A stretch of 64,000 nucleotides of DNA from Candidatus Falkowbacteria bacterium RIFOXYD12_FULL_34_57 (GCA_001780285.1 MFGN01000005.1:10200-74199); one strand, 5' to 3'. Counted from the first letter of the stretch, positions 38,611 through 39,850 are shown. Translations and numbers: made by a program. The notes: generated by a model not told the origin, from the sequence alone.

Positions 38611-39850
38611 ATGAAAAAGCAATTAACAGAAGATTTGTTTCGAGCTTATTATGATGCACGGAGAAACAAGCGCAATAAAAAAGACGTGGTTAAGTTTGAA
38701 GTGAACTATGAACGTAATTTGTTTGTTTTGGCTGAAGAAATTCTGGATGGAAAATATCAACCTGGTGTCAGTTCTTGTTTTATTGTTAAAAAACCGGTTA
38801 AAAGAGAAATCTTTGCCGCTTCTTTTCGTGATAGAATTGTCCATCATCTAATATATAATTATATAAATCCGCTTTTTGAGCGAAGTTTCATAAATGATTC
38901 GTATAGTTGCAGAATCGGAAAAGGCACTTCATATGGCATCAAGCGCTTGAATCATTTCATCCGTTCCTGTTCAGAAAATTACCAAAAAGATTGTTATATA
39001 TTAAAGCTGGATATCAAAGGATATTTCATGTCAATTAACAAAAATATTTTGCATGAAAAAATAAAAGAAACGCTAAATACAGCACGAGAGAGAGAGAGAG
39101 AGAGAGAGAGAGAGTAATTTTTCCGTTTGCAGGACAAAGTATTTTGATTATAAATTAATTCATGATTTGATTGAAAAAACAATTTTTTATAATCCGATAA
39201 AAAACTGCGCAGTCAAGGGTAAAGGAGAAGATTGGGCGGGATTGCCGAAATCAAAAAGTTTATTTTTTACACAAGCCGGTTGCGGACTGCCAATCGGTAA
39301 CTTGACTTCACAGCTTTTTGGCAATATATATTTGAATGAATTTGATCACTATGCCAAAAGAAAGCTAAAGATAAAATATTACGGTCGATACGTGGATGAT
39401 ATGGTTTTTGTTCATCGCGATAAAGAATATCTTAAATCCATTATCCCACAGATAAGAAATTATTTGAAAAAAAATTTAGCACTGAGTTTGCATGAGAAAA
39501 AAATTTATCTCCAGCATAATTCTCGCGGAGTGGATTTTTTGGGAACAATCATAAAACCGCATCGCATTTATATAAAAAATCGCACCAAGGGGAATTTTTA
39601 TAGATTGATTAAACATTGGAACAAAGTCTTGGAAGAAAATAAAAACGAATTAGCCAAAAATGAAAAAAAGCAATTTTTAGCCGGCATGAATTCTTATCTG
39701 GGAATAATGAGCCATTATGATACGGCAAAATTAAGACAGAAGATGCTCGGTTGCTTATCGGTTTATTTTTGGAATTATTTCTATAATGAGAAAGGGTTTT
39801 TGAAGAAAAGGTCCAGACAGCACTACGATCAATCAATTGACAAAGCATGA
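38611..39850 (+). CDS. DGR reverse transcriptase, split into two ORFs (38611-39117, 39167-39850) by a frameshift in a (GA)n tract
   Basis: N-terminal part: REIFAASFRDRIVHH, SYSCRIGKGT, YILKLDIKGYFMSI. C-terminal part: GLPIGNLTSQLFGNIYLNEFD (DGR-clade [LIV]GxxxSQ signature), YGRYVDDMVFV (YxDD), GVDFLG. The second frame is open from inside the repeat (39086) onward. 1240 nt total, so +2 nt gives 414 codons. Confidence 0.85.
39086..39114 (+). repeat. (GA)14+G dinucleotide tract at the RT frameshift point
   Basis: 29 nt of strictly alternating G/A, read as RERERERERE then TAA in frame 1. Frame 2 reads through it into the rest of the RT. Confidence 0.95.

Follow-up and report, generated by a model that had tools for sequence, protein, structure and literature searches.

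An intragenic dinucleotide repeat that switches a gene by its length is known from the Type III mod gene of Mycoplasma mycoides, in which (AG)12 runs into a TAA codon and the gene is inactive, whereas (AG)10 keeps it in frame and active (PMC3498834). Hypermutable tracts and reversible frameshifts are also reported for coliphages T2 and T4, and the passages of that preprint on such tracts propose bet-hedging outside the classical pathogens (PMC12633550). Among diversity-generating retroelements (DGRs), the reverse transcriptase (RT) of Quimbyvirus occupies three overlapping frames, an arrangement interpreted as two programmed translational frameshifts, and in its passages on frameshifting the same article also states that DGR RTs had previously been predicted as single open reading frames (ORFs) only (Benler et al. 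2021, PMC8008677). Here we describe a DGR of Candidatus Falkowbacteria bacterium RIFOXYD12_FULL_34_57 whose RT gene is split at a GA repeat. The element lies on a stretch of DNA of 64,000 nucleotides (nt) (GCA_001780285.1, MFGN01000005.1:10200-74199), hereafter the window, and coordinates are counted from its first letter. An earlier note on this DNA had offered three explanations of the split: an error of length in sequencing or assembly, a decayed RT, and an on/off switch driven by slipped-strand mispairing. From the sequence comparisons reported below, we consider it probable that the GA tract is a simple sequence repeat (SSR) contingency locus gating mutagenic homing, and that the window carries it in the OFF state.

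The tract, an SSR within the RT gene, occupies positions 39086..39114 (+ strand), exactly where the earlier note had placed it, and consists of 29 nt of pure repeat, that is 14 GA units and a final G, or (GA)14G. In the window it forms a 14-unit, out-of-frame (OFF) allele and encodes (RE)5 in the upstream frame. The two-ORF layout given in that note was also recovered: an N-terminal RT ORF of 168 amino acids (aa; 38611..39117, +), in which the tract is translated as RERERERERE with a TAA stop immediately 3' of the repeat, and a second ORF that a mechanical call places at 39167-39850, the total span being 1240 nt. The +1 frame is open from within the tract to 39850 and the C-terminal part of the RT in this frame comprises 245 codons (39113..39850, +), with the translation ...IQHERERERERESNFSVCRTKYF / ...HERERERERESNFSVCRTKYF...; the version in the earlier note contained a D that is not encoded and more RE pairs than are present. 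Addition of one GA unit in silico yields a 413-aa RT (414 codons with the stop), as that note had stated, whereas removal of two units, for which 414 codons had been claimed as well, gives 412 codons and a 411-aa protein. Since the repeat unit is not divisible by 3 and lies inside the ORF, unit changes shift the RT frame. The tract is the sole dinucleotide run of more than 5 units in the 64-kb window, the remaining runs all being (AT)4-5, and 100 dinucleotide-preserving shuffles of the window gave 0 matches to (GA)10 with up to two mismatches allowed.

The first ORF contains the N-terminal RT motifs as far as KLDIKGYF, including D134; it aligns to residues 16-165 of the Bordetella RT (bRT) and matches the RVT_1 profile weakly (profile positions 9-93). 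The C-terminal part forms a stop-free tblastn high-scoring segment pair (HSP), aligns to RVT_1 positions 113-205 and to bRT 174-290, and contains a 3a-like insertion, IGNLTSQ (motif 4/B), YVDD (motif 5/C) and the thumb. KLDIKGYF had been described as a fingers motif; it aligns instead to LKSDFSKFF of Bordetella bRT, and we take it to be the palm motif (3/A) in which the first catalytic Asp lies. The view that the truncated product lacks the catalytic core is correct for motifs 4-7 and the thumb, all of which are missing, but one catalytic Asp is retained in the 168 aa.

By the sequence-level features tested, namely RT motifs, a pair of template repeat (TR) and variable repeat (VR), and Avd, the element is a DGR. 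Its target gene (1728 aa; 32631..37817, +) encodes Laminin_G_3 repeats and a C-terminal Fib_succ_major region and carries the VR at its 3' end (37626..37813, +). An Avd-like accessory gene of 113 aa (37849..38190, +; PF22296 bAvd, E = 1.3e-14, score 55 bits versus a cutoff of 40) follows, and then the TR, 188 nt long with 47 adenines (38351..38538, +). In the TR/VR alignment 10 mismatches were found, all at TR adenines (10/10; chance about 1e-6), which bears out the adenine-restricted VR differences of the earlier note. The repaired RT matches RVT_1 with E = 1.2e-15 and its best match among solved structures is Bordetella bRT (8ub7_A, E = 1.1e-32); IGNLTSQ and YVDD are invariant across the homologue alignment. 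The locus is also present in three metagenome-assembled genomes (MAGs) at NCBI (GCA_001778325.1, GCA_001780255.1 and GCA_001778135.1) and in several JGI/ENA groundwater assemblies. The collection of viral contigs yielded no relatives, and a phage origin, considered as a candidate, was dropped for that reason.

Alleles of the tract were gathered by exact-protein look-ups, and their lengths were read from assembled contigs (i.e. consensus sequences) or from protein products; gapped patterns built on the flanks had no match in metagenome_contigs, genome_contigs or viral_contigs, from which these assemblies are evidently absent. Three lengths occur in the Falkowbacteria population. The 14-unit tract (29 nt; OFF, 168 aa, P0122) is found in the window, L001-5, L010-15 and L017, and on at least 17 contigs including three NCBI MAGs. 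A tract of 15 units (31 nt) encodes the full 413-aa product (ON, P0125) in L006 and L016 (ERZ4902887 NODE_23 and ERZ27254748 k141_218656), and one of 13 units (27 nt) is OFF in the other wrong frame, with a 181-aa product (P0124), in L007, L008 and L009 (ERZ27254749, ERZ4902915 and ERZ28563784). The 15-unit contig L006 is 158 kb long, has a coverage of 25.6 and shows 0 differences to the window over flanks of 653 + 10,736 nt. The 13-, 14- and 15-unit alleles all stand on flanks with 0 differences, L008 excepted beyond 39473. The finding of three alleles on identical flanks rules out both an error private to the window and a simple fixed pseudogene.

Several peculiarities of the assemblies concern the same region. 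From 39474 on, L008 (1.4 kb) bears no resemblance to the window; with a coverage of 1.3 it is probably a chimera, and it was used for tract length only. Contig L005 (JGI 3300003342) terminates exactly at the GA tract, and L006 and L004 begin within or beside the TR; assembly breaks at the GA tract or at TR/VR fit graph ambiguity arising from sequence heterogeneity there. Two proteins from the SRC source (SRR3989339), which we take to be a protein-level assembly, are probably artefacts of that procedure: P0001 (357 aa) is in frame and has 56 aa missing between two EKK motifs, and P0133 is an RT variant without the whole tract region. The P0001 deletion was set aside as evidence, being a probable chimera with no contig recorded. 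In the NCBI gene calls for L010, L011 and L014 (three MAGs) no protein is given for either RT half.

A second well-sampled series comes from a marine lineage (MAG SI034_bin78 and relatives), which has a full DGR with 16 of 18 TR/VR mismatches at TR adenines in an alignment read by eye. Its tracts measure 19, 21 and 23 nt, and only that of 21 nt is in frame; two of the contigs, L038 and L090, show no flank difference over 475 + 3692 nt. The products of the marine cluster imply 9, 10, 11, 12 and 13 units on 13, 3, 17, 3 and 2 contigs, respectively, the 12- and 13-unit alleles being represented by protein sequences only. Those of 10 and 13 units encode complete proteins (396 and 398 aa), and full length is recorded for P0253 and P0263. 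Single-nucleotide differences between L042 (ON) and L090 (OFF), three in number, were considered as a possible link between the ON state and the VR and were rejected, since all lie upstream of the VR and are not DGR-driven.

In homologous RTs of 61-78% identity, the matching codon position, after A/V-R and before S/V, is likewise taken up by a pure GA run. This run is (GA)6G in L020, L022 and L044 and (GA)12G in L021, all in frame, and it is (GA)13G in L102 and (GA)15G in L105, both out of frame. In L103, from a Candidatus Taylorbacteria MAG, there are seven units, one of them impure, and the gene is out of frame, whereas its in-frame relative L044 has six. In L104 (ERZ23499000 scaffold_20268) the same RT loop is occupied by a G16 homopolymer (537-552), which is out of frame and splits the RT; poly-G at the tract loop may represent convergent use of another repeat type. 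Poly-G is error-prone in short reads. RT fragments P0142, P0150, P0180 and P0182 end in Gly runs at the tract loop (protein evidence only). At least four tract lengths can be judged from the products of the P0143 cluster, and an allelic series is present in at least three lineages.

The repeat is the only lesion in the out-of-frame genes tested. In L038, L090 and L102-L105 (five lineages), a change of one unit (1-2 nt in the case of poly-G) restores an ORF of 394-411 aa, and tblastn of the 413-aa RT against those six loci gave exactly two stop-free HSPs, in different frames and meeting at the repeat. A pair of HSPs of this kind was also obtained for the window and for L007. Seven OFF alleles in six lineages, that of the window counted, have no second lesion over about 230-250 downstream codons. 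Among 79 frame-agnostic DNA retrievals, the only SSR-less relatives found to be frameshifted elsewhere in the RT were L071 and L091. GA runs of at least 9 units in 105 loci occur only at this place in the RT, and always on the RT sense strand. The earlier note had taken orthologous RTs lacking the repeat, together with additional disabling mutations, as the mark of a pseudogene; the outcome of the comparison favours the slipped-strand switch. The sequence just 3' of the tract (GTAAATTCCGC...) is read, when the gene is in frame, as VNSAY in the marine lineage (L042/L038/L090) and as SKFRP in L105. Such shared post-tract DNA in different frames suggests that past frameshifts at the tract were compensated by nearby indels.

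Within the protein, the GA tract corresponds to residues 159-168 and opens an insertion of about 52 residues (query residues 162-221, about 60, versus 8 in bRT) between the segments aligned to bRT 16-165 and 174-290. Among homologues, indels are frequent at the beginning of this insertion, and its second half (W209, LP, KSLF) is conserved. In the AlphaFold model of the 15-unit RT (mean pLDDT, the predicted local distance difference test, 83) the RE run closes a helix (144-168), after which comes a low-confidence linker (169-180). Since the insertion is indel-rich in its first part and the modelled linker is of low confidence, changes in tract length that keep the frame look tolerable.

The VR also bears traces of change. 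ERZ28563808 differs from the window at 2 positions in about 6.8 kb, 37749 and 37767, both of which are VR sites at TR adenines and first bases of AAY codons (P about 5e-5 under uniform mutation). Because the VR differs only at TR adenines, adenine-directed change has occurred since the two genomes, both of which carry the 14-unit allele, diverged. Such a change between two OFF genomes fits either a past ON episode or leaky expression. Two SRC variants of the target, P0127 and P0131, were rejected as data on VR diversity: they have internal deletions, and their VR is the same as in the window.

In the mechanism we favour, slipped-strand mispairing in replication would add or remove GA units, and the remainder of their number on division by 3 would set the frame. 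Here, 15 units would produce the full 413-aa RT (ON); with 14 units translation would stop at the TAA past the tract and release a 168-aa fragment without motifs 4-7 and thumb (OFF), and with 13 units it would release a fragment of 181 aa (OFF). ON cells would use the RT, together with Avd and TR RNA, to bring adenine-directed substitutions into the VR of the surface protein (1728 aa); in OFF cells homing would stop and the present VR would be frozen. The population would then be divided into a majority that is mostly locked and a minority that diversifies. We infer that slippage proceeds at a high rate, that it is reversible within lineages, that the OFF state means no active RT and that selection maintains the tract as a switch. 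In each respect that can be judged from sequence, the RT gene has the properties of an SSR phase-variable gene, and the switch proposed in the earlier note gains from the allelic series, the conserved loop position and the poly-G at that loop elsewhere. A broader proposal is that an RT clade, largely from the candidate phyla radiation (CPR)/Patescibacteria with some marine bacteria, has evolved and maintained hypermutable repeats at a single surface loop of the RT (GA in several lineages, poly-G in others), which would place targeted hypermutation under stochastic, heritable and reversible ON/OFF control; for this we see the scales as level.

Several observations weigh against a selected switch. 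The 13-unit Falkowbacteria contigs are short (1-2 kb), one of them at coverage 1.3, and stutter or assembler effects on the lengths are still compatible with the contig data taken by themselves. Several extra OFF lineages were found with the truncated ORF1 as query, which favours short products and is thus a source of bias. Only two VR variants were seen, differing at 2 of 47 adenine sites; L016, the sole 15-unit contig spanning the VR, has a VR identical to that of the window; and among the contigs compared there is no sample linking the ON allele to higher VR diversity. OFF alleles account for about 85-90% of contigs in both well-sampled lineages, counts that are not independent because many contigs stem from a time series of a single aquifer or were re-assembled from data that overlap, and this excess would fit a mostly locked system and relaxed selection on the RT equally well. 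Finally, about one third of the distinct long-tract alleles confirmed in DNA are in frame, which is the neutral expectation. The OFF majority, an in-frame share as expected without selection on frame and the lack of an ON-VR diversity correlation in the contigs compared would also be accounted for by unselected instability of the repeat leading to decay, in which the alleles are real, the loop is tolerant and a dispensable DGR is being lost with no adaptive switch. Nevertheless, we regard such decay as unlikely: the tract is pure and stays at one codon position although the RTs share no more than 61-78% identity, seven OFF alleles in six lineages show no second lesion, ON alleles persist on identical flanks, G16 fills the same loop in another lineage, and the VR has changed at adenine sites between two OFF-allele genomes. 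The decayed RT of the earlier note is disfavoured on similar grounds, as the repaired RT aligns with homologues over its whole length and keeps every column invariant among them, an ON allele is present on identical flanks and the SSR is the only lesion in six further out-of-frame loci from five lineages.

Recoding is another way in which an active RT might be made from a split gene, by RNA polymerase slippage or by a two-base ribosome shift (tRNAs being able to re-pair without mismatch on GAGAG), with tract length tuning RT dosage. OFF alleles are common in nature, the VRs of two 14-unit genomes differ, and the Quimbyvirus DGR has its RT in three frames together with VRs showing adenine-specific variation (frameshifting passages of PMC8008677), all of which would suit recoding. 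However, OFF alleles of a single lineage use both wrong frames (13 and 14 units in Falkowbacteria; 9/12 and 11 in the marine series), and the relatives do not share a fixed frameshift, since L020, L021, L022, L042 and L044 are in frame and other relatives are off either way. A search for a stimulatory RNA structure in the 100 nt 3' of the tract found that this segment folds no better than shuffles (z = +0.26), i.e. without structure beyond chance. Moreover, efficient slippage of the recoding kind is documented mainly for homopolymer runs, which also counts against it. We therefore judge recoding improbable as the explanation of the split, although it could add leakiness. That the gene reads in frame everywhere and the lengths are mis-called would be favoured by the proneness of dinucleotide and poly-G runs to stutter and base-calling error, by the short length or low coverage of some variant contigs and by the contig L005 ending at the tract. 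Against such an artefact, 14 units recur across pipelines and samples, in at least 17 JGI, ENA and NCBI contigs with the three NCBI MAGs included, other lengths stand in consensus contigs, among them 15 units in the 158-kb contig at 25.6x, the pattern recurs in unrelated projects and lineages, and minority stutter should lose to the majority in a consensus; the length error considered in the earlier note is thus disfavoured and appears very improbable. Least credible of all is a split functional RT, in which products of 168 aa and 227 aa would form an active enzyme: the break does fall within a poorly conserved surface linker, but the second piece needs a TTG start at 39167, with loss of about 18 conserved-frame codons, the 13-unit allele yields another fragment pair, and single-ORF full-length alleles are found in each lineage.

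Other features of the window were recorded alongside. An unassigned 219-aa ORF (39837-40496) overlaps the RT 3' end and is followed by AbiEii (PF08843; 40486-41208), a toxin-antitoxin pair; downstream of the RT, the relative L022 has a RelB/YafQ pair at 1445-2002, and L103 and L104 have NYN-domain genes. Very large ORFs are present at 11484-27470 (5328 aa), 27504-32498 (1664 aa), 32631-37817 (1728 aa, the DGR target), 51839-58159 (2106 aa) and 58936-62301 (1121 aa), and the 2106-aa ORF contains a 177-nt tandem repeat array (54551-55347). The window also encodes a Y1 transposase (PF01797; about 47194-47856). Tandem repeats of 7 nt in 3-5 copies (ATTCAAA, CAAATTA, AAATTCA, CAAATTC, ATTTCCG and AAAATCG) are found inside long ORFs, at 3612-3647, 4077-4129, 4173-4192, 25891-25920, 26877-26911, 51384-51415 and 59944-59981; some are in the 5328-aa ORF and one is just before the stop of the ORF 50000-51418. 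As a 7-nt unit is not divisible by 3, a change in copy number would shift the frame, and these repeats could be further contingency loci.

To our knowledge, little is understood of how DGR activity is controlled in nature. If homing never paused, even a well-adapted variable region would be overwritten again and again, and a repeat switch in the RT would, if true, be a simple genetic answer. It would amount to second-order bet-hedging, in which a useful receptor variant is locked while a minority explores, and it would add uncultured CPR bacteria to the hosts of contingency loci and a new class to the functions that they gate. It would also explain 'inactive' DGRs in metagenome surveys such as PMC8144416. 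Surveys that need an intact predicted RT would miss or misclassify such elements, and in three MAGs no RT protein was called. The ON fraction can be read straight from metagenomic reads, so the question of regulation is testable on existing data.

Literature searches in which DGRs were combined with simple sequence repeats, phase-variable genes or homopolymeric tracts led to nothing but general reviews and papers on other subjects. The word 'frameshift' does not occur in the DGR surveys PMC8144416 and PMC11661182, and in the passages of PMC5758913 where frameshifts are mentioned they concern TR/VR indels and not the RT. As the search returned no SSR phase variation of DGRs, the locus would appear to be a known type of switch that acts on a gene class both new to it and consequential, and that recurs in several lineages.

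The nearest systems each share part of this arrangement. The T2/T4 loci are phage loci, whereas the present ones are cellular DGRs, and the preprint's passages on hypermutable tracts make no mention of retroelements (PMC12633550). As in Quimbyvirus, to judge from the passages on its RT and VRs, the DGR RT is not one ORF and the VRs vary adenine-specifically among near-identical genomes; unlike in Quimbyvirus, the gene is broken at an SSR of polymorphic length, with in-frame alleles alongside and OFF alleles in either wrong frame, and the Quimbyvirus passages on frameshifting mention neither a repeat tract nor length polymorphism (PMC8008677). The DGR of Bordetella phage BPP-1 (PDB 8ub7 series) resembles ours in having an RT with IGNLTSQ/YVDD, Avd, adenine-only TR/VR differences and a VR at the C terminus of a large surface protein; it differs in that the RT described here has an insertion of about 52 residues opened by a hypermutable repeat and is out of frame in most sampled genomes. 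With the M. mycoides mod gene (PMC3498834) the locus shares an intragenic AG/GA run of which one length hits a TAA just past the repeat and another is in frame, both lengths being found in near-identical genomes. It departs from mod in its hosts, which are uncultured CPR and marine bacteria and not host-adapted pathogens, and in the position of the tract, which lies in an RT loop in the middle of the gene, some 475 nt past its start, and not near the 5' end. The gated gene here is a DGR RT and neither a methyltransferase nor a gene for a surface structure, and a second, targeted mutation system would stand under the control of the switch.

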